A stretch of 64,000 nucleotides of DNA from an uncultured bacterium. Lineage in GTDB: Bacteria > Patescibacteriota > Patescibacteriia > CAIQCM01. A model generated the notes under the pieces. The model made no database searches and was not told the origin of the DNA. It saw only the letters and a list, made by a program, of their open reading frames with translations. Below, piece after piece: positions 1,064-25,045 of the stretch (positions are counted from its first letter, which is position 1; every line of letters starts with the position of its first letter). The stretch covers positions 387,740 to 451,739 of the forward strand of contig OY970181.1 in assembly GCA_963708045.1 (NCBI GenBank), read 5' to 3'. The position numbers were made by a program, and so were the translations under genes.

Positions 1064-1069
1064 ATTTTG

Positions 1070-2068: not shown

Positions 2069-2112
2069 TGATTGCAAAACACAAACATCGAGTTCGGATA
2101 AGGAGATTTCCA

Positions 2113-2585: not shown

Positions 2586-2605
2586 CGTCACAACCTCACA
2601 ATCGA

Positions 2606-2646: not shown

Positions 2647-2649
2647 AAA

Positions 2650-2693
2650 CCTCCCATCTTTACGCGGTCGCGCCAAGATGGGAGGTTTTGTTT
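2650..2693. terminator. bidirectional terminator hairpin between convergent genes
   Basis: cctcccatcttt...aagatgggagg with T-run on the + strand and A-run upstream (T-run on the - strand). Confidence 0.55.
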
Positions 2694-3474
2694 ATTGTTC
2701 GTTTCGCGCGAGGTGGTGGGGGATACCTTCGGCGTAAAGTTTTTGAATTGCTTGGGCGGTCGTTGCACCGCTGTATAAGCGAACTTGGTCTAGTGTCCCC
2801 ACAAAACCATTTACGCCGGAAGAATTATCAGCCCCAATGGTAAATACATGATTGATCACGCTTGCACTAGGACCGGTGGTAAACTCCAAGGCTCCATCAA
2901 CATAACCTTTTATTGAAGTGCTGTCACCTGTTACGACGACAAAATGCCAATTACCGTCGTTAAATTTCCTTGTTCCTGTATAACAGTTAACCGTATCGCA
3001 CATCCTTAGCTTTCCACTGTTGTCTGTTCCGATTGGTTGCCCACCGTTGCCACTACCGGGAGAAAAAATCCATTGATAAGCACCTGTTGATGTTGTTTTA
3101 AGCCAAAGTGAAGAGGTAAAAGAATTAAGCGAGACAGTAAGTGAATTTGCAGTATCAATATGTGTACCATTAAAATATATCGCATTTCCAAAAATACCTG
3201 TTGTATATGTTGAACCGTTGATTGTACCGCCAAGCGTTCCATTATTTCCATTCCCCGATGCGTCAATGATTGTTGTGCCGCTTGTTTCGTCTAATCCCCA
3301 ATCACCAACAATTCGGTCGCCAAGGCCTTGGTAAATATTGACGTCTGATTGTTGCCCCACAGCAAGGCGTGCTTTGCTCCGCGCGGTCGTTAAGGAAACA
3401 ACGGCAATTGTTGAAAGCAGGCCGATTATCGCAATGACGACCAAGAGCTCAATTAAAGTAAAAGCGCGTTTCAT
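2692..3474 (-). CDS. type IV pilin-like protein with C-terminal LamG/concanavalin-like lectin domain
   Basis: N-terminal prepilin cleavage/methylation motif KRAFTLIELLVVIAIIGLLSTIAVVSL. Then a LamG_3-like segment (GDWGLDETSGTTIIDASGNGNNGTL...GNAIYFNG). Confidence 0.8.
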   Translation of the reverse strand: MKRAFTLIELLVVIAIIGLLSTIAVVSLTTARSKARLAVGQQSDVNIYQGLGDRIVGDWGLDETSGTTIIDASGNGNNGTLGGTINGSTYTTGIFGNAIYFNGTHIDTANSLTVSLNSFTSSLWLKTTSTGAYQWIFSPGSGNGGQPIGTDNSGKLRMCDTVNCYTGTRKFNDGNWHFVVVTGDSTSIKGYVDGALEFTTGPSASVINHVFTIGADNSSGVNGFVGTLDQVRLYSGATTAQAIQKLYAEGIPHHLARNEQ

Positions 3475-3497
3475 TGTATTACGGGTAAAGCGCTAAT

Positions 3498-4919: not shown

Positions 4920-4959
4920 ATAATCTAATAATATAGGATTGGACGGAAAAGGTTAAGGC

Positions 4960-5230
4960 GATCTGTCTTCGCCCCTCTTTGCAAAAGAGGGGAGTTCGTT
5001 TTGTCATAAATAACTTTAACGTAATAAAACAGAACTCTCCCTACCCTCCCTTTTACCAAAGGGAGGACTAATATTTTTCGCGCCCTTGTCACTCTCTTTG
5101 CAAAAAAGATTTAATTTGAGAATTTTGTTTTTGCCCGTTCTTTGCGAAATGATGTGCTTATAATCTGTAACCAATCTTTGCCCACTCTTTGCAAAAGAGG
5201 GGGTAGGGGGAGTTCGTTTTTCGCGATAGC
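4960..5230. repeat. cluster of related short inverted-repeat hairpins (cccctctttgcaaaagagggg family)
   Basis: Four related copies lie near 4968, 5086, 5135 and 5183. 5033-5052 is an inverted copy of 5203-5222 (gggagggtagggagagttc). Confidence 0.5.
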
Positions 5231-5265
5231 GCTTTCCCGTGAACGAGGCGTGGTAGTTTGTTAAC

Positions 5266-5307
5266 GATTAAAAAACAAACCTCCCCGAGAGGAAGGTTTG
5301 TTTTTTG
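5266..5307. terminator. bidirectional intrinsic terminator (3' of rnpB on the minus strand)
   Basis: caaaccttcctctcggggaggtttg followed by a U-run on the minus strand. Its reverse complement also has a T-run on the plus strand. Confidence 0.6.
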
Positions 5308-5750
5308 TCCGTGCGTCTATAAGCCGAATTCTGTCATCAAGTTTGCTTTCGCAAAATTGAGCAATGGTTATCTATCTGGGATTCATATTGCTATGAACCT
5401 CAAGCGGCCGTACGGCCTTGCACCGAATAGGTGTTTGCACCGGCTGTCATCTCTGACAGTCCCGCGTGAGCTCTTACCTCACGATTTCACCCTTGCTTCT
5501 CCCGTTAAGGAGGTTAGCGGTATGTTTCTGTTGCGTTCCCTTAAGCGTTGCCGTCTAAGGGATACCTTATCTTGCGATAAGACTTTCCGTGGGCTTGGGA
5601 AAAAATTTCTCTCGCGAGAGGCGAAATCATTTCTTGCTCCCCGCCGCTGTTAGCGGCTATTACTTGCCTTACGCCTTGCGGCATAAGAGGTGTTCGGACT
5701 TTCCTAATCAATTCAAATAAATGAATTGAGCAACCATCCGACGCGCGGAC
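5308..5750 (-). ncRNA. rnpB: RNase P RNA (bacterial type A)
   Basis: Minus-strand conserved blocks: GGAAAGTCCGAACAC (P4 5' strand), GGGTGAAATCGTGAGGTAAGAGCTCACGC, GGTGCAAGGCCGTACGGCCGCTTGAGG, and ACAGAATTCGGCTTATAG (P4 3' strand). P1 pairs the 5' gtccgcgcgtc with the 3' gacgcacggac. The ORF 5258..5653 (+) on the track is spurious. Confidence 0.8.
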
Positions 5751-5912
5751 AATGGTGAATATAGCCCATTTTTATGGAAAAGTCAAGGTCTCCGATGTGC
5801 CATATCTGCCCGAGAATGTTTATCGTTCATTGTTCATTGTTCATTCAAGTAATATAATGATTAACGGTTCGGGTCTTGATTTTTTGTTTAAAACGCGCTA
5901 ATATCGTTGGTT

Positions 5913-7877
5913 ATGAAATTTCCAAAATTTGAAGGAAAACAAATCTTGATTTCTTTGGCTTGCGGCGTGCTCGCGGCGGCGTTCATTCTCCTTGGTGTTT
6001 TTGGAACCTCCGAACGCCGAATTCATGATTTTCTTTATCACGCGCGCCAACCGCAACCGGACATTGTCATTGTCGCAATTGATGACGCTTCGTTACAAAC
6101 CGTTGGCCGCTGGATGTGGGATCGCGCTACGTTTGTAAAACTATTAAGCAATCTCGCGCCCGCAAAAATAATCGGGCTAGATATAAATTTTCCCGAAAGC
6201 TCGCCCACGCCAAACGCTGACGCGTCACTCGCGGCAATAATTTCCTCGCTCGGCAAAGTTGTTTTGCCGACCGACATAACTTACTTGGCTGATAATAAAA
6301 CTGTGGCGCATGCGACGACGCCAATCCCATTGCTTGCAAGCGCGGCTGTTGCTATCGCGCACACGAGCGTGCTCCCTGATCTTGATGGTATTTTACGACG
6401 TTTGCCGCTTGTTGTTTCGGCGCCCGATGGCAATACCTATCACGCCCTTGGGGAGATTGTTGCTCGTCGCGCTGGCGCTCGCGTAGAAAATTATCCGTTG
6501 GATGCTAAAGGGATGATGCTTGTTCCATATTCTGGCGCGCCTGGACGCATCCGTACCGTTTCCGCCGCTGACGTTCTTTCCGGCCGCTTGCCGCCCGAGT
6601 CTTTCCGAAATCAAATCGTGATGGTCGGCGGCACCTCGGCGATTTTTCGCGACCAGTATCGCGTCCCGACTTCGTCGGGCGCGCTAATGTCTGGCGTTGA
6701 AGTGCAAGCCAATCTTGCCGACGCTTTTCTTTCGGGAAATTTTTTCTATGAAGTCTCACCGTTTCTTGCCGCGCTCATTTGTTTATTGCTCTTGTTTGTT
6801 GTCGGCATAATTTTTGCCGCGGCGCGAACGCGAACGGCGATAATTTTTACGGTTGCAATTTTTGTCGCTTACTTTGTCGCTTACGGCGTCTCGGCTTTCT
6901 TTGGATATTTTTTACCAATAATAAATATCGCGCTCGCGCTGCTGCTTGCGTGCGTTTCGCTCATAATTTTCCGCTACGCAAAAATGACCACCGAGCGGCG
7001 CCATCTGCGGTCGGCTTTTGAAAAATATGTTGCCCCGTCGGTTATTAATTCGGTAATGGCGCATCCGGAAAAATTAGCGCTTTCGGGCGAACGCCGCAAA
7101 ATGTCGGTGCTTTTTACCGATCTCCGCGGCTTTACTACTCTTTCCGAAAAATTAAATCCGTCCGACATTATCAAAATTTTAAACGGTTACCTGAACGCAA
7201 TGACGGAAATAATTTTTGACGAACATGGCGTCGTGGACAAATATATGGGTGATTCCATAATGGCTTTTTGGGGCGCGCCGATTGACGATCCGCATCATGC
7301 CGAACGGGCGATTCGCGCCGCCATCCGAATGCGCGACCGGGTAAACGAGCTTAATCATTCTGACTATTTCGGCGCTGGCGTCACGCTTCGGGCCGGGGTT
7401 GGCGTTTCCACGGGCGAAATGATTGTTGGTAATATGGGCTCCAATCGCCGCTTTGACTATACGGTTATTGGCGACACCGTTAATCTTGGTTCACGCGTTG
7501 AAGGTCTCAACAAAACTTACGGCACGGAAATTCTCGTTACCGAAGAAACGGTTAAAGGTTTGCCGCACGACTATATTGTTCGTCAGCTTGACCGTGTCGC
7601 CGTAAAAGGGAAAAACGAACCAGTGCGGATTTATGAAGTTATTGGTTTTCGTCAGCACGCCGCGCCGGAAGTGATGGATAAACTTGATCGTTTTGCGCGG
7701 GCGCTCGCGCGCTATGAAGCGCGCGATTTTCACGGGGCGTTTATTCAGTTTGGTGATATTCTCGCCTTAAATCCGTCCGACGCGCCGTCCAATGTTTTTT
7801 GGGAACGCTCAAAATATTTTATGGAAAACCCGCCGCCCGCCGATTGGAACGGAGCGTGGGTGATGATTACTAAATAG
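5913..7877 (+). CDS. CHASE2 sensor domain-containing class III adenylate/guanylate cyclase
   Basis: N-terminal CHASE2-like extracytoplasmic domain, then 3 TM segments. The C-terminal cyclase domain has the motifs FTDLRGFT, GDSIMAFWGAP and IGDTVNLGSRVEG. ATG at 5913; the track ORF starts at a TTG at 5907. Confidence 0.85.
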   Translation: MKFPKFEGKQILISLACGVLAAAFILLGVFGTSERRIHDFLYHARQPQPDIVIVAIDDASLQTVGRWMWDRATFVKLLSNLAPAKIIGLDINFPESSPTPNADASLAAIISSLGKVVLPTDITYLADNKTVAHATTPIPLLASAAVAIAHTSVLPDLDGILRRLPLVVSAPDGNTYHALGEIVARRAGARVENYPLDAKGMMLVPYSGAPGRIRTVSAADVLSGRLPPESFRNQIVMVGGTSAIFRDQYRVPTSSGALMSGVEVQANLADAFLSGNFFYEVSPFLAALICLLLLFVVGIIFAAARTRTAIIFTVAIFVAYFVAYGVSAFFGYFLPIINIALALLLACVSLIIFRYAKMTTERRHLRSAFEKYVAPSVINSVMAHPEKLALSGERRKMSVLFTDLRGFTTLSEKLNPSDIIKILNGYLNAMTEIIFDEHGVVDKYMGDSIMAFWGAPIDDPHHAERAIRAAIRMRDRVNELNHSDYFGAGVTLRAGVGVSTGEMIVGNMGSNRRFDYTVIGDTVNLGSRVEGLNKTYGTEILVTEETVKGLPHDYIVRQLDRVAVKGKNEPVRIYEVIGFRQHAAPEVMDKLDRFARALARYEARDFHGAFIQFGDILALNPSDAPSNVFWERSKYFMENPPPADWNGAWVMITK

Positions 7878-9128: not shown

Positions 9129-11603
9129 ATGAAAAAAGCAATAATTCTCGTTATTTTAGCTGTTTTAATTGCAGGCGCGACGCCTGTGGGCGCTGCTGGT
9201 GTAAACCCAGGATCGCTTGTTAAAGGCAGTTCCTCGGCCGTGTATTACATTACCGCCTCGGGAAATCGTCTCGCCTTTTCCAATGAAGCTGTCTACAAAA
9301 CTTGGTACTCGGACTACGCTGGCGTTATCAAGATAAGCGATTCCATGCTCGCGAGCTATCCGCTCCGCGGCGTTGTTTGGTATCGCCCTGGTTCTAAACT
9401 CATCAAGGTTCGTTCGGCACCGCAAGTTTATGCGGTTGCCGCGAACGGCGTTTTGCGTCCGCTCGCTTCTGAAGGCGCGGCGCGCGCTCTTTATGGTCAA
9501 GACTGGAACAAGAAAGTTGATGACCTTAATGATTCGTTTTTTGTAAATTATAAAGTCGGCACGCCGATCGCGACAATTCTTGATTATTCTCCGGCTACGG
9601 AAATCGCCGCGACCCCGACGATTGCCGCCAACGGTGCCGGCGCTTTGCCTGTTGCTTCGTCTACAAATTCAAACAATGTCAAACCCGCGAACAATTCGTC
9701 TTCGGTTTTGACGACGGCTATTTCCAACTCGGTTTCGTCCTCGGGTCGCATTATGAGCGTGGCCGTTGATCCGAAAAACGAAAATACCGCCTACATTGGT
9801 TCGGCTTCGGGCGGTATTTACAAAACCACCGACCGTGGCGAAAATTGGTCGTCGGTTGCCGATAATTTAAATTCAATGCATATCGCGGCGCTCGCGATTG
9901 ATCCGAATAATTCCGACATTGTTTACGCCGGCACGGGTGAAACCTATATGCCAGGCGACGAATACGGTTATAACGGCGTTTATGTAACCAAGGACGGCGG
10001 CAAAAATTGGTCGCTTATGCCGGGAACCCAGCCGCTTGCTTTGCGCGCGATCTCCAGTATCGTTGTTGATCGCACAAGTGGTAATCATCTTTATCTCGGC
10101 ACGAATGCCGGTGTTTACGAAACAAAAAATTCGGGAACCAATTGGAAAAAAATCGCCGACGGCTTTATTGAAAATTTGATGATCTCGGAAAAAAATCCGT
10201 CAGTTATTTTTGCGACCGGCGCGTCTTCGCTATTAATGCGCTCGTCCGACGCTGGCGCGACTTGGGAAAAAATGACCGGCTGGAATATTAAGCGCGGTCT
10301 TCCTGAAGACAACCCCTGGTTTAACCGCGTAACGATAACACAGTCCTCGGGCAAAACCGTAGTCGGCGATGCTTCGCACGTTATCTATGCGGCTTTTGCC
10401 GATCCGTATCAACTTTTCCGTTCGGATGATGATGGCACGAGCTGGCACGAAGTCGCCAAACAACCGTATAGCGGTATGCGTAACTACGCCGTGCTTGCCG
10501 ATCCTACTGACGCCGACGTTATTTTTACGGCTGGCACTTATCTTAATCGCGCGACTCAGGGCGGTTGGACGGTCGTACCGGTGGCTTTTCCGCTTTTTGA
10601 AGTCCGTAATCTTGTTTTTGCGCCAAGCAATAGCCGCGTGATGTATGCTGTAACCGATACGGGCGTCTGCGTTTCTGTAAATGGCGGCTTGGACTGGACG
10701 GTAAAAAATAAAGGATTGGATACGACGCAATGGTACGCAGTGGCTGTTGGAAAAAATGGAAATATTTACGGAGCGGTGCAAGACCACTCGCTTATGCGTT
10801 ATGACACAGCTTGGGGCGATGCCTCATGGGGCGATGCTCGCAAAATTATTACCGATCCGACGCGTGCCAATGTTGTCTATGTCCTTTCTTCTGACAATAA
10901 AGGCATCGGCCGTTCGCAAGATTTTGGAAAAAACTTTTCGCCGATCAATGGATATATGACTCCTGGGAGCGCGAGCTTAATCGCGGCTGATCCGTCAAAC
11001 GGCGGAACGATTTACGCCGCAGTTGGCGCGACCATCTACCGCTCAACTGACAGTGGCGATAGCTGGAGCGGACTTGGTAATGGCAACTCTGATGCCGCAA
11101 TTACAGCAATTAGTCCTTCGCACGCGCCTGAACGTATTGTCGTTGGTCGCGCAAATGGCGCGGTTCAGTCGGTTGTCCCAGGGATTGGTTCTAATGTCGC
11201 TACTTGGAAAACAATTTATACCGAACCGAACAAAAAGTCGGTGGCAAAAATTGTTGCTTCCGCTGACAGCATCACGATCGCCTTTAACGTTGATTGGGGT
11301 ACGCGTGTTGTTCGCTTAAAAGAAATTTATAGCGGCTCTTTTAAGCCAGCTGATTTAACCGGCGACCTTATCGGCGGCGCGTGGGTGCGTGATATGGATA
11401 TGGATATTTCCAATCCGAGCACGATCTACGTTGGCACACTCACGGGCGCTTTCGTTGGTCGCGAGGTCGCGGCCGGCAAATGGGTTTGGTCAAAAATTAA
11501 CGGTATCCCGTTTGTTGAAGTCACCGGCGTCGTGTCAAATAATGATAATTCCAAAGCCTACTTCTCAACTTGGGGCCGCGGACTCTACGAAATCACTAAG
11601 TAA
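9129..11603 (+). CDS. secreted BNR/Asp-box repeat beta-propeller protein
   Basis: Signal peptide, then at least 7 xxDxGxTW/NW repeats (TDRGENWS, KDGGKNWS, KNSGTNWK, SDAGATWE, DDDGTSWH, VNGGLDWT, TDSGDSWS). Confidence 0.7.
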   Translation: MKKAIILVILAVLIAGATPVGAAGVNPGSLVKGSSSAVYYITASGNRLAFSNEAVYKTWYSDYAGVIKISDSMLASYPLRGVVWYRPGSKLIKVRSAPQVYAVAANGVLRPLASEGAARALYGQDWNKKVDDLNDSFFVNYKVGTPIATILDYSPATEIAATPTIAANGAGALPVASSTNSNNVKPANNSSSVLTTAISNSVSSSGRIMSVAVDPKNENTAYIGSASGGIYKTTDRGENWSSVADNLNSMHIAALAIDPNNSDIVYAGTGETYMPGDEYGYNGVYVTKDGGKNWSLMPGTQPLALRAISSIVVDRTSGNHLYLGTNAGVYETKNSGTNWKKIADGFIENLMISEKNPSVIFATGASSLLMRSSDAGATWEKMTGWNIKRGLPEDNPWFNRVTITQSSGKTVVGDASHVIYAAFADPYQLFRSDDDGTSWHEVAKQPYSGMRNYAVLADPTDADVIFTAGTYLNRATQGGWTVVPVAFPLFEVRNLVFAPSNSRVMYAVTDTGVCVSVNGGLDWTVKNKGLDTTQWYAVAVGKNGNIYGAVQDHSLMRYDTAWGDASWGDARKIITDPTRANVVYVLSSDNKGIGRSQDFGKNFSPINGYMTPGSASLIAADPSNGGTIYAAVGATIYRSTDSGDSWSGLGNGNSDAAITAISPSHAPERIVVGRANGAVQSVVPGIGSNVATWKTIYTEPNKKSVAKIVASADSITIAFNVDWGTRVVRLKEIYSGSFKPADLTGDLIGGAWVRDMDMDISNPSTIYVGTLTGAFVGREVAAGKWVWSKINGIPFVEVTGVVSNNDNSKAYFSTWGRGLYEITK

Positions 11604-11668: not shown

Positions 11669-12172
11669 TTATTCGCCAACTAAATAATTTAAATTTCGGC
11701 TCCAGGCTGAGAATGTTGTGGTGCAACCGTTAGGTACCGAGGTTGGGTTTTCCAGGCTAAGTGCCATCATATAATTAGTCGGCAGGCCTGTATATCCAAA
11801 CGCGCATTTACTGATTGGTTTATACCCGCGCACGTAATAATAAGCATAAGGCGTTCCGGTGTTGATTGGGTCAACCGGTATGTTGCTTAAATAATTTGGT
11901 TTAATTTCCATTGCCGTAAAACTTCCGCCTGGATAAGCGACCGAGACGCAGTCGCAGGTGGCTGGGCAAGCCTGCCCGCAAGTTGGATAAGCGCCAGTTT
12001 CGTCAAAGTAGAGATCAAGGGCGGTTTTGATTTGTTTAAAATCAGCAACGCGTTTGGCGTCCCGCGCTTTGCTTCTTGAGTTACTCAAAGACACGACCGC
12101 AATCGTGCTGAGGAGGCCGATAATGGCAATGACGACCAGTAATTCAATAAGAGTAAAAGCACGATGAGACAT
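11669..12172 (-). CDS. type IV pilin-like protein (prepilin-type N-terminal cleavage/methylation domain)
   Basis: MSHRAFTLIELLVVIAIIGLLSTIAVVSL followed by a PilA/GspG-like segment (KRVADFKQIKTALDLYFDETGAYP). Multiple Cys residues. Confidence 0.8.
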   Translation of the reverse strand: MSHRAFTLIELLVVIAIIGLLSTIAVVSLSNSRSKARDAKRVADFKQIKTALDLYFDETGAYPTCGQACPATCDCVSVAYPGGSFTAMEIKPNYLSNIPVDPINTGTPYAYYYVRGYKPISKCAFGYTGLPTNYMMALSLENPTSVPNGCTTTFSAWSRNLNYLVGE

Positions 12173-12354: not shown

Positions 12355-13170
12355 TTATTCCGTCACGACCGTAGCCACTTGGTGCGAACGAAGACCTTCG
12401 GCGTACATTTTTTTTATTTGCGCTAAACTAAGGGTTGAAGAATAAACTCGCGTGTCGTCTATGTTGCCGTGGAACGGATCGCCTAATGCGATTGGTGAAT
12501 AGCTCCCGATCGCTAAAGTGACACTATTATAGGCAGTTATTGTACAGGTGGCTGTTTTGCCGACCTCGTGTCCGTTAAAGAAAAGTTTCATCGTCTGGTT
12601 GACCGAGTTGATTGAAAGGGCGACCATTGACCAGGAGTTCGCGGGAATTTGCGGCCCAGTCAGGTATAAAGAATACGACCAGCCCACACCAGCACAACTC
12701 ATCAAGGATTCCAAGTTGCCGTCATGGATTCGATATTCGTATTGCGCTAATTTGGAGAGGATCGTATTATATCCAGTCGTGCTTGTCGGATAGATCCATG
12801 TTGTGAAAGTCGCATTGGTCGCCTGTAGGTTAAGCGTTGAACTAAGATAATTTGATCCTGAAAAATTCGCCGAACATCCGGTATTTCCTGGGGCGTTGCT
12901 CGTTGACCATCCGGCGCCGCCACTCCAGGTCGCAGTGTTGCCGTTTCCAGAAGCATCGCTCGCGGTATTGCCGGAACATTCATTAAAAAGCCATTCGCCG
13001 ACGAGTTGGTCGCCGAGCCCGTTGCGCAAGCTTTGATCAAACGATTGTCCGGCAGCAATTTTTCCTTTATCACGTGCGGTCACCAAAGACACGACCGCGA
13101 TTGTGGAAAGCAGTCCGATAATCGCGATCACAACAAGAAGTTCAATTAGGGTAAAGGCGCTACGTTTCAT
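12355..13170 (-). CDS. type IV pilin-like protein with LamG/concanavalin-like domain
   Basis: Prepilin N-terminus KRSAFTLIELLVVIAIIGLLSTIAVVSL. LamG_3-like segment (GEWLFNECSGNTASDASGNGNTATW). Confidence 0.8.
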   Translation of the reverse strand: MKRSAFTLIELLVVIAIIGLLSTIAVVSLVTARDKGKIAAGQSFDQSLRNGLGDQLVGEWLFNECSGNTASDASGNGNTATWSGGAGWSTSNAPGNTGCSANFSGSNYLSSTLNLQATNATFTTWIYPTSTTGYNTILSKLAQYEYRIHDGNLESLMSCAGVGWSYSLYLTGPQIPANSWSMVALSINSVNQTMKLFFNGHEVGKTATCTITAYNSVTLAIGSYSPIALGDPFHGNIDDTRVYSSTLSLAQIKKMYAEGLRSHQVATVVTE

Positions 13171-13220: not shown

Positions 13221-13757
13221 TCAATACCAACTTGATGCTCCTGGCGTGAAGATGGCCCAACCGCTATTTGTGTGGGTGGGGTCATAAAACGGATCACTTG
13301 CTGAGAGTGTCCCTTCCGGCGTGCAGTAAGCTAATAATTTATAATCTATTCCGTTTGAAGTATACACATATGTATTCCAGCCAGCCTGACTCCTGCAACC
13401 AGCTAAGGCAGAGCTTGGGTTAGTTTTGCCCATATTGGTATCGTCTGGTAGTCGTCCGATATAATTAGGGGCTAGATTGGGAATCCATCCGTTTGAACCA
13501 GAACTGTCATGGCTACCAAAAGTTGAAGTTACTCCCCACCAACTGCAACACCCGCTTACGCCCGTTGAAGGATAGGCGTCAAAGTTGGTGTAATAGAGTT
13601 CCAGCGCTTTAGAAATTTGGACGAGATCAACTTTTCGCTTCTGGTTTCGCGCGTTCATTCTCGTTGTACTTAAAGACACCACCGCAATCGTGCCGAGGAG
13701 GCCGATAATGGCAATGACAACAAGTAATTCAATAAGAGTAAAAGCACGACGAGTCAT
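13221..13757 (-). CDS. type IV pilin-like protein
   Basis: MTRRAFTLIELLVVIAIIGLLGTIAVVSL. The 5' ~75 nt are ~95% identical at nucleotide level to the pilin at 11669..12172. Confidence 0.8.
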   Translation of the reverse strand: MTRRAFTLIELLVVIAIIGLLGTIAVVSLSTTRMNARNQKRKVDLVQISKALELYYTNFDAYPSTGVSGCCSWWGVTSTFGSHDSSGSNGWIPNLAPNYIGRLPDDTNMGKTNPSSALAGCRSQAGWNTYVYTSNGIDYKLLAYCTPEGTLSASDPFYDPTHTNSGWAIFTPGASSWY

Positions 13758-16463: not shown

Positions 16464-18317
16464 CTATTTAAGACCCACGGCCTTCTTAATGTACCAATCG
16501 GTAATATTTGCAAAGCGGTCGGATGGCGATGAGATTGAAGTAACGGAAAAGTTCTTTACGTTTGTTGACTGGGGGTAAAGAAAACGAGGTGAGTAAAGGA
16601 AAATTGCGGACGAATCAGCCGTGATAATTTTTTGAAATTCTCTAAGCATTGCTTGTTTGGCGTTGGCGTTGATCGTCGCTCGCGCTTTTTCTAAAAGTTC
16701 GTCAACGCGGCGGTTTGAGTATTTAGACAGATTAAGTCCACCCTCAGCTTGCGACGAATGCCAGAAGGCGAATGGGTCGCCACCCTCGCTTAAGATTTCG
16801 CCAAAAATAAGCGCCTCGTAGTTTGCGTCCTTGATTACGGTTTTTTGAGCATCGGCCGCGGACACAAGAACAATATTCACTTTTGCGCCAATCGCTTCCC
16901 AATCCTGCTTAATCAAATTCGCGGTTTTTTGGCTAACCTCAGTATTAATTGCCGTCAGCTTAATACTAAGTTCGGTTATAGTTGGCGGTGGCTGGATTTT
17001 TGCCGTTGATTTTACTGTTTGGGTCTTTGTGCGAACGGTGGAGTTTTCCGACAAAACAAAGCCAGCTTTTTCTAGCAGGGCTTTGGCTCCAGCTGGGTCA
17101 TAGTTATAAATGGCGACGTCAGCAGAATAATTTTTATCGTCAAGCGGCGCGTTGCTTATAATCGCCGTGTTACCGGTCGCGTCAATGATGATTCGTTCGC
17201 GGTTAATGGCCATAGCCAAAGCATGGCGGACATCAAGATCGGAAAAAATCGGCTGGGCTTTAGGGTTAAAGAAGATCGCCGTATCTTCGTCAAGATTTAT
17301 TTCGTGAGTGTTTACGTTTGGGAGTTTGAGGATGGCGGGATAGAGGCGCGATGGAACAAAGTTGAGTCCGAAAACGGCGTTCGCGGAAAGTTTTTCAACG
17401 GCCGTTTCGTAATCGTCAAAAAATTTAAAAGTAATTTTATCAATTTTTGAATTTGATCCTTCGGTCGCGGCCAAAGTGTAAGAAACAATGTCGCCGTCCG
17501 AATTACGAGTAAAATTTAAAAAATGATAAGCACCGCTTCCGATTGGTTTTAGGTTAAAATCGGAATTTGCGACCGTAGCAGGATCGGTTTTTTCCCAGAG
17601 GTGTTTAGGAATAATGCCCACCGTGAGCAGGGAGGGGAAGTAAGAATTGGGTTCTTTTAGAACAAAGGTAATTTTTTCTTGGTCAATGACGTTTACAGAA
17701 ACGCCGGAAAATTTTTTTGCAATCGGACTTTTCCATATTGGGTTCACGATCGTTTGAAAAGTATAGGCAACGTCAGTGGCGGTAAGTTCGGTTCCGTCGC
17801 TAAAGCGCGCGTTACGCAAAGTGAACGTATAAATTTTACCATCAGCCGATACAGAAACATTATTGGCAAGATCAGTTACGAGGTTGCCCGATCCGTCGTG
17901 GCGGTATAAACCTGAATAAACCAGGCTAATAATATCCTCGTCAACGTCATTCCCGTTTGAAAGAATTGGGTTTATCGTTCGCGGACGACCAACGATTCCT
18001 TCGGTGTATTCGCCGCCCGCGGCTGGGACAAGGGTTATGTGGCGCGCTACCCAGCCGCCAGCAACAAGAATAAGGCCGATTGTAAAAACGGAAATGCCGA
18101 TCGTGATTATTTTTTTCTCTTGCGGCGTTGTAACTTTTCCAAGATGCCGCCATTGGCTTAGACTGGGGAGTCTGCGCTTGGCAACAATATGGTAAGCGAT
18201 CATTAAGTCGGCGCGTTCTTCGCGCTGGCTTTTTAAGTTATCGGATTTTTTTTTAAACCATTCGCGGCTGACAGTAAAAATTTTTTTAAAAAAATTCATA
18301 CGAATGGTAATGATCAA
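16464..18317 (-). CDS. ABC transporter substrate-binding protein, family 5 (peptide/nickel-type), membrane-anchored
   Basis: N-terminal TM anchor followed by an SBP_bac_5-like domain. ~600 aa. Confidence 0.6.
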   Translation of the reverse strand: MIITIRMNFFKKIFTVSREWFKKKSDNLKSQREERADLMIAYHIVAKRRLPSLSQWRHLGKVTTPQEKKIITIGISVFTIGLILVAGGWVARHITLVPAAGGEYTEGIVGRPRTINPILSNGNDVDEDIISLVYSGLYRHDGSGNLVTDLANNVSVSADGKIYTFTLRNARFSDGTELTATDVAYTFQTIVNPIWKSPIAKKFSGVSVNVIDQEKITFVLKEPNSYFPSLLTVGIIPKHLWEKTDPATVANSDFNLKPIGSGAYHFLNFTRNSDGDIVSYTLAATEGSNSKIDKITFKFFDDYETAVEKLSANAVFGLNFVPSRLYPAILKLPNVNTHEINLDEDTAIFFNPKAQPIFSDLDVRHALAMAINRERIIIDATGNTAIISNAPLDDKNYSADVAIYNYDPAGAKALLEKAGFVLSENSTVRTKTQTVKSTAKIQPPPTITELSIKLTAINTEVSQKTANLIKQDWEAIGAKVNIVLVSAADAQKTVIKDANYEALIFGEILSEGGDPFAFWHSSQAEGGLNLSKYSNRRVDELLEKARATINANAKQAMLREFQKIITADSSAIFLYSPRFLYPQSTNVKNFSVTSISSPSDRFANITDWYIKKAVGLK

Positions 18318-18358
18318 GGTGGTGGCGCGACGATGAAAAGCTTACTCGTGGCCGATTA

Positions 18359-18589
18359 TTAGCGCGCCGCGAGAAACGAAGTAAAAGCCACTCCAAAAAA
18401 TAAAATGGAGAGAACAATAGTAGCGATAAAAAGACCTTTTTCAAGGCCACGTTTGGTGCGGTAAATATTCCCTTCGCCTCCGAAAGTTGCGGACAAGCCG
18501 ACCCCGCGCTGTTGAAGAAGAACGGCGGTAATCAAGAGAACGGCAATAATTATCTGAACGATAGACAAGATTTGTTTTATATTTTGCAT
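18359..18589 (-). CDS. secG: preprotein translocase subunit SecG
   Basis: Two TM helices with a QQRGVGLSATFGG...RTKRGLEKGL loop motif. Start chosen at the internal Met (MQNIKQIL); the track ORF extends to 18667. Confidence 0.65.
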   Translation of the reverse strand: MQNIKQILSIVQIIIAVLLITAVLLQQRGVGLSATFGGEGNIYRTKRGLEKGLFIATIVLSILFFGVAFTSFLAAR

Positions 18590-18876
18590 AATAAGCGGCT
18601 CTAAATATAATGAAAGACGCATTTTGCGTCGGTGGGTTAATTTATCACTCGCGAGCTTCTTAGTCAACGTTTAACGCGATTTGCAATATACCCAGCCAAT
18701 TTTTTCATATTTCGTCCGGAAACCGCCATCTTGGGTTTTTTGTGTTTTTCTCTTCGCTCGGCCTTGGTAAGTAATATGTCATGTTTCATATAATAGGCGG
18801 TATTATGGACAACGTACCAAATAGTTGTCCATTGTATGTGGTATGTTGTCCATTTTTTATGTTATAATATCATTCT

Positions 18877-19599
18877 ATGGCAAAAAAAAGCCGAAAACAA
18901 TTGTGGTGGATATTGATCTTGGGGACAGTTTTTATTTTAATCGCTACTTTTGTTTTAAAAGTCTGGATCAATTATCGTCTTATTAAAACCGGCAACATTG
19001 ATTTAATTTCCGTAAACGAATCACGAGACAGGTTTACGCGCGGCACGGGCGCCGTCGGAGATGGAGCGGCACCACTTTGGGAAAAGGGAGTGCCTTTGCT
19101 TGGCGACGAGTCGGCGCCAATTCAACTCATTGAGTTTGCCGATTTCGGTTGTCCATTTTCAAAAGATGAAAGCTCGGTTTTGCGCGAATTGCTTATTAAA
19201 TATCCATCTATCTTCCGTCTGCAATTTAGAAATTTTCCGATTACCGAACTTCATCCTGGCGCTGACCTCGCGGCCGCGGCTGGCGTTTGCGCGAACGAAC
19301 AGGGTAAATTTTGGCCGATGCACGACAAACTTTTCGCCAATCAAGGTTTATTTATTGATACCGATCTAATAAAATTTGCTGGCAGTGTCGGTTTGGATGA
19401 AAATCGGTTTAAGAAATGTTTAACGTCTGCGGAAACGACGAAAAAGGTTACAAGCGACATTGGCGCGGGGAAAACGGGCGGCGTTACCGGAACCCCGACT
19501 TTCTTTATCTCTTTTGGAAAAGGAGCGCCGATTAAAATAGAGGGCGCCTTGCCGAGCGAAGTATGGGAAAAAATAAGATTGTTTTTTGTAAAAAAATAA
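18877..19599 (+). CDS. DsbA-like thioredoxin-fold oxidoreductase with CPFS (CxxS) active site, membrane-anchored
   Basis: N-terminal TM segment. EFADFGCPFSK in the position of the CPxC motif (second Cys replaced by Ser; codon TCA). DsbA/BdbD-like remainder. Confidence 0.65.
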   Translation: MAKKSRKQLWWILILGTVFILIATFVLKVWINYRLIKTGNIDLISVNESRDRFTRGTGAVGDGAAPLWEKGVPLLGDESAPIQLIEFADFGCPFSKDESSVLRELLIKYPSIFRLQFRNFPITELHPGADLAAAAGVCANEQGKFWPMHDKLFANQGLFIDTDLIKFAGSVGLDENRFKKCLTSAETTKKVTSDIGAGKTGGVTGTPTFFISFGKGAPIKIEGALPSEVWEKIRLFFVKK

Positions 19600-21158
19600 A
19601 ATTGTTTTCTGGTTTGCGCGTCGGCGTTGCTTTGGCCGCGCTGGTTTTTGTTTTTTTAGCGCCAGTCTTGGCAATGGCCGGCGTTACATCTACCGCTTGG
19701 ACCGACACGGAATGCGCCAAAATTGGCGGCGCTTGGCTGCCTACGGATGCTTCATCGCAAACTTTTGATTGCTTTGCCAAAGAAGTGCCGTCGCCGATAA
19801 TGATTTCCATTGGCAGTGTCTCTGGTACAACGACGCTCACCAAATACATCGCCGCCTTTTATAATTATATGGTTGCTGGCGCCGCTGTGCTCGCTGTAAT
19901 TTATATAATGATTGGCGGTTTCCAGATTCTTTATTCGGCTGGCGGCGGTGAGGTGGGGGAAGGGCGGAAAAAAATTACGAGCGCCGTTCTCGGGTTGGTG
20001 CTTATTTTCTGTTCCTACGTTCTTCTCCAGACGGTTAACCCCGCGCTTGTTAGTCTTCAGTCACCGCGGCTAAAACTTATTAAGGCGAGTTATCTGGATC
20101 AACTTACGCCGTCAAATGGCATTGGTAAGGGAAGCGCTTGTTGGACGGAAAGTGATGCCGAAGCTTGCAAAGCTGCTTGTGATAGCTGTATATGTAAAGT
20201 TCTAAAAGAACCACCGGCCGCGAAAATTGCTATTGGCATACCAATTGCGATGTTATCAATTTCGGCTGCCGTTGGTGGCGCCGCGGCAGGTATTGCCGCC
20301 GCGGGCGCGGCCAGTGGTGCCTCGATCGCCTCAGCTACCTTGAATATTTTAAGAGGTGGTGGGCGGGCAATTTGGGCCGCGACCAAGTTTGAATTTACCG
20401 TTGGAAAAGCGCTCGGCGGAACAGCTGGCGGCGTGGGTACTGTTGTTGGTGTTCCGTTGGCTGGGACTGCTTATTTAGCGAGCGAGCTTTGGGGTTCGGA
20501 TAAAAATAGTAAAGGCGAAAAAGGCGTCTGCTGGCCGTTTGCCAACCACGATATTGCCAAAGGTGAAATCTGCCAAGCCGGCGACAACCAAGGCTGTATT
20601 TCAAATTATTGTTTGACGATTGATGAATCGCTTGGAATTGGAATTTGCGCGGTGTTTGATGGCACGGTTGATTCGCTATGTAAAACGGAAAGCGATTGTA
20701 AAAAAATACAGGCTTCGGCCAAGTGTGTTACAACGGTTTCCGATGCTTATAAAAAATGCACCGACGGCGCGGTTGGTTCTCCTTGTGGCCAGGACGGAGA
20801 TTGTGCAAGCGGGTACAAATGCGATACCTCGCGATATGTTTGCGGCGGCGGTGGAGGTTTTGGAATCGGCGCGGTTTGTACTGGGAGCGCTGATTGCGCG
20901 GGTAGTAATTGCGCGATGCCTGGTGGATCAACAAAAGGAACCTGCGTGACCGGCACGCTCGGATCTTACTGTTATCGGGACAGCGATTGCAATAATGCGA
21001 CTAGTGGTTTGGTGTGTCTTGGTTATGACCTGAACACCGAAAGCAGACAGGGCGTCTGTGGTACGCCGACGCTTGATGGCGAATGTTTCTCAAATCACGA
21101 TTGTCCGACCGGCAGTCATTGCGCGATAGAAGATACCGGCGGCGTTTGCGTAAAATAA
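19563..21158 (+). CDS. secreted cysteine-rich protein with VirB2/TrbC-like hydrophobic hairpin and tandem 6-Cys modules
   Basis: Signal peptide with an AMA cleavage site. Two hydrophobic helices flank a GGGEVGEGRKK loop. Ala/Gly-rich segment. C-terminal repeats of the type C-x3-DC-x5-C-x6-C. More than 40 Cys in total. Overlaps the DsbA-like gene by 37 nt. Confidence 0.6.
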   Translation: MGKNKIVFCKKIKLFSGLRVGVALAALVFVFLAPVLAMAGVTSTAWTDTECAKIGGAWLPTDASSQTFDCFAKEVPSPIMISIGSVSGTTTLTKYIAAFYNYMVAGAAVLAVIYIMIGGFQILYSAGGGEVGEGRKKITSAVLGLVLIFCSYVLLQTVNPALVSLQSPRLKLIKASYLDQLTPSNGIGKGSACWTESDAEACKAACDSCICKVLKEPPAAKIAIGIPIAMLSISAAVGGAAAGIAAAGAASGASIASATLNILRGGGRAIWAATKFEFTVGKALGGTAGGVGTVVGVPLAGTAYLASELWGSDKNSKGEKGVCWPFANHDIAKGEICQAGDNQGCISNYCLTIDESLGIGICAVFDGTVDSLCKTESDCKKIQASAKCVTTVSDAYKKCTDGAVGSPCGQDGDCASGYKCDTSRYVCGGGGGFGIGAVCTGSADCAGSNCAMPGGSTKGTCVTGTLGSYCYRDSDCNNATSGLVCLGYDLNTESRQGVCGTPTLDGECFSNHDCPTGSHCAIEDTGGVCVK

Positions 21159-21170
21159 TAAAAATAGCTA

Positions 21171-21212
21171 AAAGCCGCAGCCCCCTCGGGGGGTTGCGGC
21201 TTTTGTGTTTTA
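21171..21212 (+). terminator. intrinsic terminator
   Basis: agccgcagccccc tcg gggggttgcggct plus T-run. Confidence 0.65.
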
Positions 21213-21289
21213 ATGATACGCTGTCCGTTCGCATGTCTTATGAAATAAGTTTTATGAATTTTGCATAAGACAGTCCGTCACAATATTTT

Positions 21290-24118
21290 ATGCAGGAAAA
21301 AATTTCTATCCGCGGGGCGCGGGTACATAATCTAAAAAACGTATCTTTGGATATTCCCAAAGGCAAGCTTGTCGTGATGACCGGACTTTCCGGTTCGGGC
21401 AAATCGTCGCTCGCTTTTGACACGGTTTTTGCCGAAGGTCAGCGCCGCTATATGGAATCGCTTTCGTCGTACGCGCGGCAATACCTTGAGCTTCAGGACA
21501 AACCCGACGTTGATGAAATTCGCGGCCTCTCGCCAACAATCGCGATTGACCAGCGATCCAGTTCGCAAAATCCGCGCTCAACCGTTGGCACGATCACCGA
21601 AGTTTATGATTTTTTGCGCGTTCTTTTTGCACGCGCCGGTTCGCCGCATTGTCACATTTGCGGACGCGTCGTTGCTGCGCAAACAACCGAGCAGGTTGCT
21701 GAACGGATTATTAAAGAAGCGGCCAAAGGAGAAATCATCGTACTCGCGCCGGTCGTTAAGGACGAGAAGGGCGAACATAAACATATTTTTCAAGATTTTG
21801 AAAAGAGCGGCGTAATGGAAGTGCAGATTGACGGCGAAATAAAAAGCACGGCGCAGGCAAAGAACGATCGGTTGGCTCGCGATCGCCGTCACGATATTTA
21901 CGCCGTCGTCGCGCGCCTCACAACGCCGCCCGAAATTTCTCGCGCCAAAATTATCGCGAGCCATGGCCTAGAATGGGGCGATGGCTTTGTTGAAGTAATG
22001 CACGTTGCCTCGGGTGCCGTCGTCAAACTGTCACGCGACCTAATGTGCTCCAATTGCGGCGTTTCTTTGCCGACCGTTGAGCCGCGCTTGTTTTCGTTTA
22101 ACAATCCGCAAGGCGCTTGCGCCGCTTGTACTGGTCTTGGAATTAAATTGGTTTTTGTTCCTGATTTGGTTATTCCCAACCCCAAACTTACGATCGCGCA
22201 GGGCGCGGTCAAACCTTGGATGCGCATTGCCGGAAATCGCGAAATAAATCTCGCGCTTATTGAAGAAGTCGGCAAGCGCTATGGCTTCTCCGCCAATTTG
22301 CCGATTTCAGAATTTCCCAAAAAAGCGATGGATATTCTGCTCTATGGCACGGACGGCGAAAAATATACCGTTTCGGGAAAAGAAGAAATGTTTGAAGGCG
22401 TGATTCCGAGCCTAGAGGCGCGTTATCGCGAAACCGATTCCGACTATGTGCGAAAAGAGCTGGAAGAATATATGCAGACGCTCATTTGTCCGGCGTGTAA
22501 CGGTCGCCGCTTGCGACCGGAGGCGCTTGCGGTGCGTTTTGCCGATCGCAATATTTCTGAAATTGTTAAAATGCCGATTGACGAAGCGTCTAAATTCTTT
22601 TCCGAAATCAGCCGTCTTACAAACGGCAAAAAAATCGGCTTGGACGATGATGGACTTAAAATTGCGAAGCCAGCAGCCAAAGAAATTGCCGCTCGGCTTA
22701 CATATTTGCTTGATGTCGGACTTGGTTATTTAACTCTGGATCGTTCGGCCGTGACGCTTTCGGGCGGCGAAGCCCAGCGTGTGCGGCTTTCTACTCAACT
22801 CGGCACGTCGCTTTCCGGTGTCATTTACATTTTGGACGAGCCGTCCATCGGGTTGCATCCAGCTGACACTGACAAGCTCATTCTCGCGATGCGCAAGCTA
22901 AAAGATATGGGCAACTCGGTCATCGTTGTTGAACACGACGATGCCACCATTCGCGCCGCTGATTATCTGATTGACGTGGGACCGGGCGCGGGGGAATACG
23001 GCGGCGAAATTGTCGCCGAAGGCACAGTCGCGCAGGTCATAAAAAATCCCAAGTCATTAACGGGCGCGTATCTTTCTGGAAAAAAATTTATTGCCCCGCC
23101 AGTTGCGTATCGCAAAGGAAACGGCAAAGCGCTTACCGTTCTTGGCGCCGAAGAATTTAATTTGAAAAAAATAGACGCGAAAATTCCGCTTGGAAAACTT
23201 GTTACCGTGACCGGCGTTTCCGGTTCGGGCAAGTCCACGCTCATTTTGGATATTTTAGGGAAAGCGCTTTCCGCCAAACTGCATCGCGCTCGCGAACTTC
23301 CCGGAAAACACAAAGCAATAAAAGGAATAGAAAATATTGATAAGGTCGTGGCCGTTGACCAGTCGCCGATTGGCCGCACGCCGCGCTCCAACCCAGCCAC
23401 TTACACTGGTGTCTTTACGGCGATTCGCGATCTCTTTACTGAAATTCCCGAAGCCAAAGCCAAAGGTTATGACGCCGGAAAATTCTCCTTTAACGTTAAA
23501 GGTGGCGGCCGTTGCGAAGCGTGTTCGGGCGAAGGCTATGTGCAAATAGAAATGTTTTTTTTGCCCGACGTATTTATTGAATGCAAAGAATGCCGCGGTC
23601 GGCGCTATAATCGCGAAGCGCTGGAAGTGCACTACAAGGACAAAAATATCGCCGACGTGCTGGATATGACGGTAGAAGAAGCGCGCCGTTTCTTTTCGGA
23701 CACGCCTTCTATTTCCGACAAACTGGGCGTGCTTGCCGAAGTTGGGCTTGGATATTTGCGTCTGGGACAGCCGGCAAATACGCTCTCGGGCGGCGAAGCG
23801 CAGCGCGTTAAACTCGCGACCGAATTGTCGCGTCGCGAAACCGGCCGCACCGTTTATATTTTGGACGAACCAACAACTGGTCTTCACTTTGATGACATTA
23901 AACGTTTGCTTGAAGTGCTAAATCGTTTGGTTGAAAAAGGTAACACCGTCGTTGTAATTGAACACAATTTGGACGTTATCAAGTGTTCTGACTGGGTGAT
24001 TGATATGGGGCCCGAAGGCGGCGCGCGCGGTGGCGAAATTGTCGCCGAAGGCACGCCTAAGGAAGTCGCGAAGAACGCTAAAAGCGTGACGGGGAAGTAC
24101 TTGAAGGGGAGTCTATAA
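21290..24118 (+). CDS. uvrA: excinuclease ABC subunit A
   Basis: Two ABC ATPase modules (GLSGSGKSS / GVSGSGKST). Zinc-finger CxxC motifs. LSGGEAQRV signatures. 942 aa. Confidence 0.95.
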
Positions 24119-24556: not shown

Positions 24557-25045
24557 ATGAAGCGCAAAGCCTTTACGTTAATTGAACTTTTGGTCGTGCT
24601 TGCGATTATTGGTTTGCTTTCCACGATTGCGATAATCTCGCTTTCAACCGCACGAAGGCAATCAAGGAACGTCAGACGGATTGCTGACGCCAAACAGCTT
24701 GTGACGGCTTTTGGTTTAGGTCTTGATGCTAGCGCGACAGGCCAATATCCTTCAACTGGCGGCGACGTGTGGAAATGCATTGGTTCAGTGTGCACTGGCG
24801 GTTGGGCGGTACTCCCCGCAAGTGCGACAGTAGACGCCTTCTTTACGCCTTTTATGGCCAAGCCAACTGATCCTGATGATAAAAATGCGCGTTGTTGCGA
24901 AGGTTATATATATAATGGGGCATTTGCTGTGAATGGAGGATTGCCGACCATTGAATATTTGTTAGAATTTCCTGCCACGTGCGGCATTGGAAAAATGTAT
25001 GGTACAACTGCTACCTATGTGTCCTGTATCGTGGGACTTAATTGA
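24557..25045 (+). CDS. type IV pilin-like protein
   Basis: MKRKAFTLIELLVVLAIIGLLSTIAIISL. TGA stop followed by terminator 25100-25140. Confidence 0.75.
   Translation: MKRKAFTLIELLVVLAIIGLLSTIAIISLSTARRQSRNVRRIADAKQLVTAFGLGLDASATGQYPSTGGDVWKCIGSVCTGGWAVLPASATVDAFFTPFMAKPTDPDDKNARCCEGYIYNGAFAVNGGLPTIEYLLEFPATCGIGKMYGTTATYVSCIVGLN

Follow-up and report, generated by a model that had tools for sequence, protein, structure and literature searches.

A predicted two-gene operon in a Patescibacteria-type chromosome pairs a monothiol DsbA-like protein with a cysteine-rich, VirB2-like protein

Within a 64,000-nucleotide stretch of DNA from an uncultured bacterium (contig OY970181.1, positions 387,740 to 451,739 of the forward strand; hereafter the window), two overlapping genes encode a DsbA-like thioredoxin-fold protein whose active site reads Cys-Pro-Phe-Ser (CPFS) and a secreted, cysteine-rich protein built around a pilin-like hairpin. 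Together they appear to make up a bicistronic operon that is complete in itself and conserved in a lineage of Patescibacteria with Candidatus Uhrbacteria as its nearest named relatives. The best explanation, to which we give about an even chance, is a leaderless, translationally coupled operon in which the monothiol DsbA acts on the disulfides of a client expressed together with it, by shuffling or chaperoning them. The window itself reads, by gene content, as a chromosome of the Patescibacteria (candidate phyla radiation, CPR) type: it encodes RNase J, a family-5 solute-binding protein (SBP), SecG, UvrA, L19, cytidylate kinase, RluD, several aminoacyl-tRNA synthetases and five type IV pilin-like proteins. 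The closest named relatives of the first gene come from metagenome-assembled genomes of Candidatus Uhrbacteria, at 34-38% identity. The two open reading frames (ORFs) and their 37-nt overlap are just as an initial annotation of this DNA had placed them:

18877-19599, + strand: gene 1, DsbA-like ORF of 240 aa
19563-21158, + strand: gene 2, pilin-like, Cys-rich ORF of 531 aa

Gene 1 scores well above the cut-offs of two Pfam families, PF01323 DSBA (61.7 bits; cut-off 25.6) and PF13462 Thioredoxin_4 (52.2 bits; cut-off 23.2), and the initial annotation's description of it as a DsbA-like protein with a CPFS site is borne out at the codon level. An AlphaFold2 model of gene 1 based on 17 homologues (pLDDT 84) has a thioredoxin fold with an inserted helical domain. 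Searched with Foldseek, this model retrieves the DsbA-type structures 3gyk, 4pwo, 7unn, 6eez and 3eu3 at E values of about 1e-10 to 1e-12, its structural neighbors including C. diphtheriae DsbA (4pwo), TsdA (7unn), Wolbachia alpha-DsbA2, ScsC, BcfH and BdbD; judging by the model, the fold is intact. DsbA-type structures are matched at the level of sequence as well. Two sites in the protein bear on its chemistry:

19150-19161, + strand: active-site codons TGT CCA TTT TCA, encoding Cys92-Pro-Phe-Ser95 at the N-terminus of helix 93-108
19492-19497, + strand: Thr206-Pro207 of the predicted cis-Pro loop (Thr at the position before the cis-Pro), invariant in the homologue alignment

Thr immediately before the cis-Pro is reported to characterize DsbC and DsbG, the prokaryotic isomerases, and to stabilize the nucleophilic thiolate (PMC2665069). 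The C-x-x-C dithiol, the defining feature of DsbA, is replaced by CPFS in gene 1, which belongs with DsbA by fold and sequence without being a canonical dithiol oxidase. No re-oxidizing membrane partner of the DsbB or VKOR kind was seen within the 64-kb window, and the usual way of working with such a partner would be closed to a CxxS site. The protein is predicted to be extracytoplasmic, with a membrane helix at its N-terminus (residues 6-38) as its tether; it has no lipobox. Membership in the Rcas_1661 thioredoxin-like (seleno)lipoprotein family (NCBIfam NF041057) was rejected, the score being 71.5 bits against a cut-off of 190 and the lipobox being absent. Enzymes of the GST-kappa/HCCA-isomerase type are cytosolic and carry a catalytic Ser at the first motif position. 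A function of that type was also rejected for gene 1, which has Cys at this position, where the enzymes in question have Ser (PMC2757866), and a membrane anchor in addition.

The replacement of the resolving cysteine is a stable property of the lineage. Seventeen aligned homologues (39-70% identity) all have Cys92, Ser95, Cys138, Cys181 and Thr206-Pro207, and the Pro adjoining Cys92 is present in most members. Position 95 is restricted to Ser or Thr, both hydroxyl residues; over 27 loci its codons are TCC (12), TCA (7), TCG (4) and TCT (3), with a single Thr instead. Because all four TCN codons are in use across these loci, Ser95 has evidently been kept through synonymous turnover, and the CxxS site looks selected rather than accidental. 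The earlier remark that TCA lies two substitutions from a Cys codon is arithmetically right but carries little information, as relatives use TCC, TCT and TCG as well as TCA. Distant homologues do carry CPFC or CPYC, as would be expected if CPFS were a sequencing error or if a canonical CPFC enzyme had recently been inactivated by mutation. The chance of this is nonetheless vanishingly small, since CxxS/T recurs with synonymous codon turnover in 27 independent loci from different samples, and the gene 1 ORF is intact with the remainder of the protein well conserved; the turnover and the invariance among the 17 homologues rule out an origin in sequencing error or pseudogene decay. A crude neighbor-joining tree groups all CxxS/T sequences into a single clade. 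Just outside it branches L025, an Uhrbacteria locus at the same genomic position that combines CPFC with a downstream pilin-like gene (labels of this kind denote loci fetched around relatives, with flanks of 4-6 kb requested per side). The simplest history would be that the pairing arose first and that the resolving Cys was lost once, afterwards; the variety of Ser codons fits a single old TGY>TCY change. In the literature we found neither a natural CxxS DsbA clade described nor any pairing of a DsbA with a pilin in Patescibacteria.

The presumptive client, a predicted polytopic membrane protein encoded by gene 2, has homologues (P0002-P0008) that are 33-48% identical and 504-528 aa long. Its parts are, from the N-terminus:

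19563-19679, + strand: signal peptide, residues 1-39, read from the sequence, with a Lys-rich n-region, a hydrophobic core and an AMA/G cleavage motif
19827-20033, + strand: two-helix hairpin of the T4SS_pilin family (PF18895), residues 89-157; its loop reads GGGEVGEGRKK, and its motif LLQTVNP is invariant
20139-20195, + strand: conserved 5-Cys cluster, residues 193-211 (CWTESDAEACKAACDSCIC); C193, C202 and C209 invariant, C206 and C211 nearly so
20214-20492, + strand: Ala/Gly-rich hydrophobic stretch, residues 218-310, variable in the alignment, with low-confidence helices in the model
20529-21149, + strand: Cys-rich tail, residues 323-529, consisting of Cys323 and six tandem 4-Cys modules

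A small N-domain, whose Cys51 and Cys70 are invariant, lies between the signal peptide and the hairpin. Hydropathy marks segments at 11-48, 95-129, 136-166 and 218-250, and helices fall at 92-124 and 131-158 in the AlphaFold2 model. The signal peptide, the hairpin around GGGEVGEGRKK, its likeness to VirB2/TrbC and the Ala/Gly-rich stretch had all been proposed in the initial annotation, and all are found: the AMA/G motif is in place, PF18895 is matched by 10 of 10 aligned relatives (best E value 2.2e-8) and one of these also matches TrbC/VirB2 PF04956 (1.7e-4). In gene 2 itself the PF18895 alignment spans 2-70 of the 71 profile positions, scoring 23.7 bits with the full-length protein (below the cut-off of 26.6) and 27.7 bits with the N-terminal 138 aa alone; a match to the NCBIfam Mbov_0395 pilin-like family, from a Mycoplasma integrative and conjugative element, is weak (4.3e-4). 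The hairpin accordingly sits in the VirB2-related T4SS_pilin family, where the initial annotation had also contemplated a mere signal plus membrane anchor with no VirB2 similarity. Of the features usual in that family, a signal peptide and two hydrophobic helices with a short charged loop are present in gene 2. The small size (~100-150 aa, essentially a hairpin) is not, gene 2 having 531 aa with ~370 residues beyond the hairpin, and neither VirB4 nor any other type IV secretion system (T4SS) gene occurs in the 64-kb window or in the fetched flanks of related loci. Searched against the Protein Data Bank (PDB), the hairpin profile matched no solved pilin, the best hit being reaction-centre helices at an E value of 0.1, and tblastn of the N-terminal part of gene 2 against plasmids and phages gave no match; what argues for kinship with classical pilins is the Pfam family together with a published survey of Patescibacteria VirB2-like proteins.

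What sets gene 2 apart within the window is its cysteine content. It has 34 Cys, where the initial annotation had put the number at over 40, and all other ORFs of the window have 0-13. The tandem modules that had been noted are real, although their spacing is not C-x3-DC-x5-C-x6-C but C-x4-D-C-x(3-8)-C-x(6-13)-C; the fuller consensus is G-x-x-C-x4-D-C-x(3-8)-C-x(6-13)-G-x-C, with five clean copies and one looser one. The isolated tail matched neither Pfam nor any PDB sequence, a like search with the middle region returned nothing, and the Myxococcus-type Cys-rich repeat TIGR04201 reached 15 bits on gene 2 against a cut-off of 25 (E 0.02). The architecture is widespread all the same. Among 1.84 billion cluster representatives searched with a profile, 24,037 are relatives of gene 2 at E<=1e-3 and 6,278 at E<=1e-10; 126 of the top 146 matches have at least 4% Cys, and lengths are mostly 350-900 aa. 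A pilin hairpin with a Cys-rich extension is thus a common combination in metagenomes, contrary to the initial annotation, which had called it unusual, and no description of it was found in the literature.

The numbers of cysteines in these proteins follow a rule. Outside the signal peptide and hairpin, the ten closest relatives have 2 + 5 + an odd number of Cys, a total that is even in all ten once the signal-peptide boundary has been correctly placed in two sequences. Among 137 family representatives with at least 14 Cys, the count outside hydrophobic segments is even in 128 (binomial p 2e-28). Because of this evenness the cysteines outside the hydrophobic segments are probably all paired in disulfides, which for the 32 Cys in the extracytoplasmic parts of gene 2 would imply about 16 intramolecular bonds. 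The family pattern of 2 + 5 + odd further suggests that one disulfide joins the 5-Cys cluster to the C-terminal region, and therefore that cluster and tail lie on the same, outer side of the membrane. The Ala/Gly-rich stretch between them (218-310) would be either a second helical hairpin or not membrane-spanning at all, a topology read from Cys parity. The family also includes very long pilin-core proteins of 973-1102 aa with 39-80 Cys (L125:755-3910, L137:657-3815, L138:1313-4621 and L152:3650-6571). None of these four genes has a DsbA-like gene directly upstream, and two of them lead arrays of three more pilin-core genes.

The pairing of the two genes extends well beyond the window. A Cys-rich pilin-core ORF lies directly downstream of the DsbA-like gene in 12 of 13 CxxS/T loci of the first two locus sets, as against one of ~75 CxxC loci, namely L025. 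A gene 1-based scan of species-representative genomes yielded five CxxS loci, every one of them with a downstream pilin-core ORF of 27-48 Cys. Seen from gene 2, a DsbA-like ORF stands directly upstream in all 14 of the closest metagenomic pilin loci and also in the more distant L105. Its site reads CP[FY]S in 13/13 such loci in which the active site is covered, the contigs of L101 and L102 holding the C-terminal end alone. The more Cys a pilin-core ORF has, the more often a DsbA-like gene stands directly upstream of it: in a gene 2-based metagenome scan such a gene was found for 0/21 ORFs with 0-4 Cys, 1/22 with 5-12, 8/24 with 13-24 and 8/11 with at least 25 (Fisher p 3e-6, uncorrected for phylogeny). 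Partners of a CxxS DsbA have a median of 34 Cys, compared with 19 for partners of a CxxC DsbA.

Similar pairs have formed around other DsbA subfamilies. Eight DsbA/pilin-core pairs have no SecG, SBP or UvrA nearby; the active sites of the DsbA-likes in such contexts are CEAC, CGPC, CPTC, CPAC, CAAC, CVNC, CANC and a degenerate SEAS, all of them retain the Cys138/Cys181 pair, and in the neighbor-joining tree they are distant from gene 1 of the window. In L103, L104, L113, L116 and L135 (~1000-6500 in each), a membrane protein of ~410 aa, with a weak match to PD40 repeats in L104 and L135, precedes a CxxC DsbA and a Cys-rich pilin-core gene, and fragments of a ClpB-type ATPase lie further upstream in L103, L104 and L116. 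Two DsbA-likes beside pilin-core genes, L107:860-1591 and L153:1264-1986, have lost both active-site cysteines (SEAS and DATT) and kept Cys138/Cys181, that of L107 also having Pro-Pro in place of Thr-Pro; they appear to be redox-dead and in this comparable to TraF. In our reading, the window would hold the monothiol version of a recurring module made of a DsbA-type helper and a Cys-rich pilin. Since the pair is conserved and DsbA-likes favor Cys-rich pilin-core genes, a dedicated folding partner is the best reading of gene 1. The initial annotation had suggested a dedicated redox partner for folding or anchoring; the first of these roles gains from the evidence, whereas the second is at odds with the even Cys parity. 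Its other proviso, that the pair might not be conserved elsewhere, is answered by relatives that keep it with tight spacing.

Genes for DNA repair or recombination follow pilin-core modules in several places: uvrA in the window (21290-24118), recG in L107 (4830-6917), and radA in L104 (5815-7590), L113 (4970-6283) and L116 (4694-6076). The published survey of VirB2-like proteins notes recG, radA and comF in T4SS loci of Magasanikiibacteriota (bioRxiv 10.1101/2025.01.22.634366). Such neighbors may be a hint of DNA uptake or a coincidence.

Expression of the two genes as a unit is suggested by signals around and between them:

18805-18813 (inverted), 18824-18832 and 18845-18853 (direct, 21 nt apart): operator-like GTTGTCCAT repeats over the -35 region
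18860-18868, + strand: extended -10 element TGTTATAAT, ending 9 nt before ATG 18877 and also flagged by a simple scan
19563-19599, + strand: 37-nt overlap, gene 2 starting inside gene 1
21169-21205, + strand: intrinsic terminator, an inverted repeat (94% complementary) with a 17-bp stem, 10 G-C pairs and a T-rich tail

The promoter element is conserved. TG(C/T)TATAAT stands 8-9 nt ahead of the DsbA ATG in eight loci (L001, L004, L005, L089, L091, L095-L097), and near-matches (TATACT, TATAGT) occur at equal spacing in L003, L008, L025, L093 and L094. Because this -10 element ends only 8-9 nt before the start codon, the operon mRNA is probably leaderless. The same promoter, together with the N-terminus MAKxSRKQLWW that is kept in P0010-P0013, points to ATG 18877 as the true start of gene 1; the public gene call P0009 (226 aa) begins 14 codons downstream of this conserved N-terminus and is probably too short. 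Four copies of GTTGTCCAT stand in the window, where 0.24 would be expected, and all of them fall between 18805 and 19156. Similar GT(T/G)GTCCAT repeats are found upstream of the DsbA ATG, at -25 to -72, in L093, L095, L097 and L005, which suggests a candidate operator for a regulator. The fourth copy (19148-19156) falls on the G-C-P-F active-site codons and was set aside as probably coincidental. Gene 2 would be translationally coupled to gene 1; among called genes of relatives the spacing comprises overlaps of 37, 37, 31, 31, 20, 4 and 1 nt and one 7-nt gap. The terminator, a strong one lying between gene 2 and uvrA, closes the two-gene operon. A 21-nt direct repeat (AAAAAATAAGATTGTTTTTTG / AAAAAATAAAATTGTTTTCTG; 19568-19611) extends over the overlap of the two genes, including the stop codon of gene 1, and encodes the Lys-rich, repeated KKIK-type N-terminus of gene 2. 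A scan of 18200-21400 with Rfam gave sub-threshold noise alone.

A mechanism consistent with these features can be outlined. Gene 1 would use its nucleophilic Cys92 and its Thr-cisPro loop, with Ser in place of the resolving Cys, on the presumptive client, the gene 2 product, which would consist of a cleaved signal peptide, a VirB2-type hairpin and disulfide-rich extracytoplasmic parts. The Cys92 thiolate would attack disulfides of the folding client tail, in particular non-native ones, to give transient mixed disulfides. The client's own thiols would then resolve these, in effect a shuffling or holding of the 4-Cys modules. Net oxidation would be supplied elsewhere, by another CxxC enzyme, small disulfides or oxygen. 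Because a CxxS site cannot close on itself, it would carry no oxidizing equivalents and require no DsbD-like reductant; nor would a monothiol site be inactivated by oxidation, so that no reductant-supply pathway would be needed. We infer from the genes and their context the catalysis, the identity of the client, the topology of its tail and its role at the surface.

Several observations weigh against this proposal, and some of them fit a rival one, in which gene 1 is a general housekeeping thiol-disulfide catalyst for type IV pilins and other exported proteins and its adjacency to gene 2 is inherited gene order beside secG. All CxxS pairs share a single syntenic locus, SBP-SecG-[pair]-UvrA/L19, where adjacency could be inherited and not selected, and the pair statistics as a whole are uncorrected for phylogeny. 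In L006 a CPFS DsbA occupies the same locus without an adjacent pilin gene, so the link of the gene 1 enzyme to a neighboring client is not a strict one. The window also encodes the five type IV pilin-like proteins, which have 2-6 Cys each and could equally be clients of gene 1, and the 64 kb contain neither a second DsbA-like gene nor any other thioredoxin-fold CxxC protein to supply oxidizing equivalents. The housekeeping role is still rather improbable. Unrelated DsbA subfamilies in different genomic contexts are also found directly upstream of pilin-core genes, pilin-core ORFs with more Cys more often have a DsbA-like gene upstream, the gene overlap is retained in most relatives, and a CxxS enzyme, which cannot itself supply disulfides (PMC2195995), would make a poor sole oxidase. 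The dedicated partnership is further weakened at the level of the proteins: the interaction between gene 1 and gene 2 is deduced from sequence and gene context, the placement of the gene 2 tail outside the cell follows from Cys parity only, and the AlphaFold2 model of the 531-aa gene 2 product, built from an 8-sequence alignment, is unusable (pLDDT 39). Lastly, the SEAS partner in L107 would show that redox chemistry is dispensable in some lineages.

This last point leads to the idea that gene 1 is a redox-inactive assembly chaperone whose fold serves as a binding scaffold and whose Cys92 is a relic. There is a precedent in TraF, whose thioredoxin fold lacks CXXC and whose part in pilus extension does not depend on redox activity (PMC11315126), and the pilin-adjacent SEAS (L107) and DATT (L153) proteins, with their structural Cys pair kept, show that such forms exist beside pilin genes. 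It is unlikely for gene 1 itself: through 17 homologues, down to 39% identity, Cys92 and Thr206-Pro207 are strictly conserved, Pro is mostly found beside Cys92, and position 95 admits only Ser or Thr, a pattern that fits a working thiolate site and not decay. Less likely again, indeed quite improbable, is thiol-mediated retention in the manner of ERp44, with a long-lived mixed disulfide to a free Cys that would hold the pilin-like protein or control its oligomerization. A CxxS site cannot itself resolve a mixed disulfide, gene 1 is predicted to be membrane-tethered and the two genes would be co-expressed, all of which suits this idea. However, an even number of ectodomain Cys in 10/10 close relatives and in 128/137 representatives leaves no conserved unpaired Cys, and the client has membrane helices of its own; stable disulfide anchoring is thus disfavored. 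Shuffling or chaperoning of client disulfides by a dedicated monothiol DsbA is the explanation we retain.

Among known systems, gene 1 is closest to the DsbAs of Gram-positive, monoderm bacteria. Corynebacterium diphtheriae DsbA (4pwo), TsdA (7unn), Bacillus BdbD (3eu3) and MdbA (5c00) belong to the same Pfam families and have the same fold of thioredoxin plus helical insertion (rmsd 2.1-3.5 A), a Thr-cisPro and a second, probably structural Cys pair, and the extracytoplasmic location in a single-membrane cell would be the same. Unlike them, gene 1 has a natural Ser for the resolving Cys, which makes it no disulfide donor, and shares an operon with one Cys-rich client; the same CPFS sequence is seen in 7uno, but there as the engineered C129S mutant of TsdA. 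SrgA/BcfH are a known kind of enzyme to set beside it, and Salmonella BcfH (7jve), a DsbA paralogue encoded in a fimbrial operon, is among the structural neighbors of the gene 1 model. A monothiol C-x-x-S in a thioredoxin fold is otherwise familiar from eukaryotes. ERp44 is a CXXS-type member of the protein disulfide isomerase (PDI) family and a retention factor. The yeast CXXS protein Eug1p is described as 'suited for shuffling reactions' and unable to oxidize (PMC2195995). The likeness of both to gene 1 is one of mechanism only, as they differ in being proteins of the eukaryotic endoplasmic reticulum with PDI architecture rather than a DsbA fold, and general or retention factors with no operon-linked client.

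Thioredoxin-fold helpers encoded with pilus or T4SS genes for Cys-rich products are known from the F plasmid. Its TrbB is a CXXC isomerase for Cys-rich Tra proteins (TraN, TraU and TraH, with 22, 11 and 6 Cys), and TraF lacks CXXC and is still required for pilus extension (PMC11315126). This pair mirrors the series of CxxC, CxxS and SxxS sites among pilin-adjacent DsbA-likes. Both TrbB and TraF are periplasmic and come from plasmids of diderm bacteria, and their likeness to gene 1 is taken at the level of the shared fold; unlike them, gene 1 has a pilin-like protein itself as its partner, in a chromosomal locus with no other T4SS gene nearby. VirB2-like T4SS_pilin proteins are reported from 1,948 CPR assemblies, where they often occur in arrays (bioRxiv 10.1101/2025.01.22.634366). 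These belong to the same Pfam family as gene 2 and share its signal peptide and two-helix hairpin. The pilins described are small and often near virB4, in contrast to the 531 aa of gene 2, with its 370-residue Cys-rich extension, its DsbA partner and its position away from T4SS genes; the words thioredoxin, disulfide and DsbA are all absent from that survey.

Other parts of the window deserve mention. The type IV pilin-like genes, with an FTLIELLVV N-terminus, lie at 2692-3474, 11669-12172, 12355-13170 and 13221-13757 on the - strand and 24557-25045 on the + strand. Three of the five were compared with Pfam N_methyl, and one of these three has a Laminin_G_3 domain. A CHASE2 sensor fused to an adenylate/guanylate cyclase (5907-7877) and an 824-aa secreted protein with BNR/Sortilin-Vps10 repeats (9129-11603) lie nearby, the former a signaling capacity that strikes us as surprising given the 1.19-Mb genome. 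A type I restriction-modification locus (43672-53578) falls within a low-GC stretch (0.35-0.40 at 46-50 kb) and comprises an HsdS fragment, HsdM, an AAA_21/AAA_15 ATPase between HsdM and HsdS, HsdS, a Bro-N domain protein, HsdR and a YgjP-like metallopeptidase.

If the pairing is only inherited gene order, gene 1 would be an ordinary lineage-specific DsbA variant. The wider view is of a widespread, undescribed module in Patescibacteria, in which a DsbA-fold helper matures a large family of disulfide-knotted, VirB2-like surface proteins anchored in the membrane; one lineage would have evolved a monothiol DsbA, a bacterial counterpart of Eug1p and ERp44 that isomerizes without a supply of reductant, and the client would be part of an epibiont contact or DNA-uptake structure. 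We hold this view tentatively and as a whole rather doubt it. A contact or DNA-uptake structure would fit the repeated siting of such modules beside uvrA, radA or recG. VirB2-like proteins are reported to be widespread in Patescibacteria, and T4SS components to be essential for the epibiotic lifestyle in the one system tested (bioRxiv 10.1101/2025.01.22.634366). On a practical level, the start codon of gene 1 in the public record can probably be corrected, and even Cys parity together with an upstream DsbA-like gene offers an annotation rule that marks Cys-rich pilin-core proteins in metagenomes. Many Patescibacteria are anaerobes, and quinones and respiratory chains are usually missing in the group. 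A reductant-free CxxS isomerase, if true, would suit such minimal organisms. The formation and correction of extracellular disulfides in this group are essentially unstudied, and a CxxS DsbA with a candidate client provides a concrete system testable in E. coli. As for the VirB2-like family, a large part of it consists not of 'small pilins' but of long proteins with probably fully disulfide-bonded tails, often accompanied by a thioredoxin-fold helper of their own.

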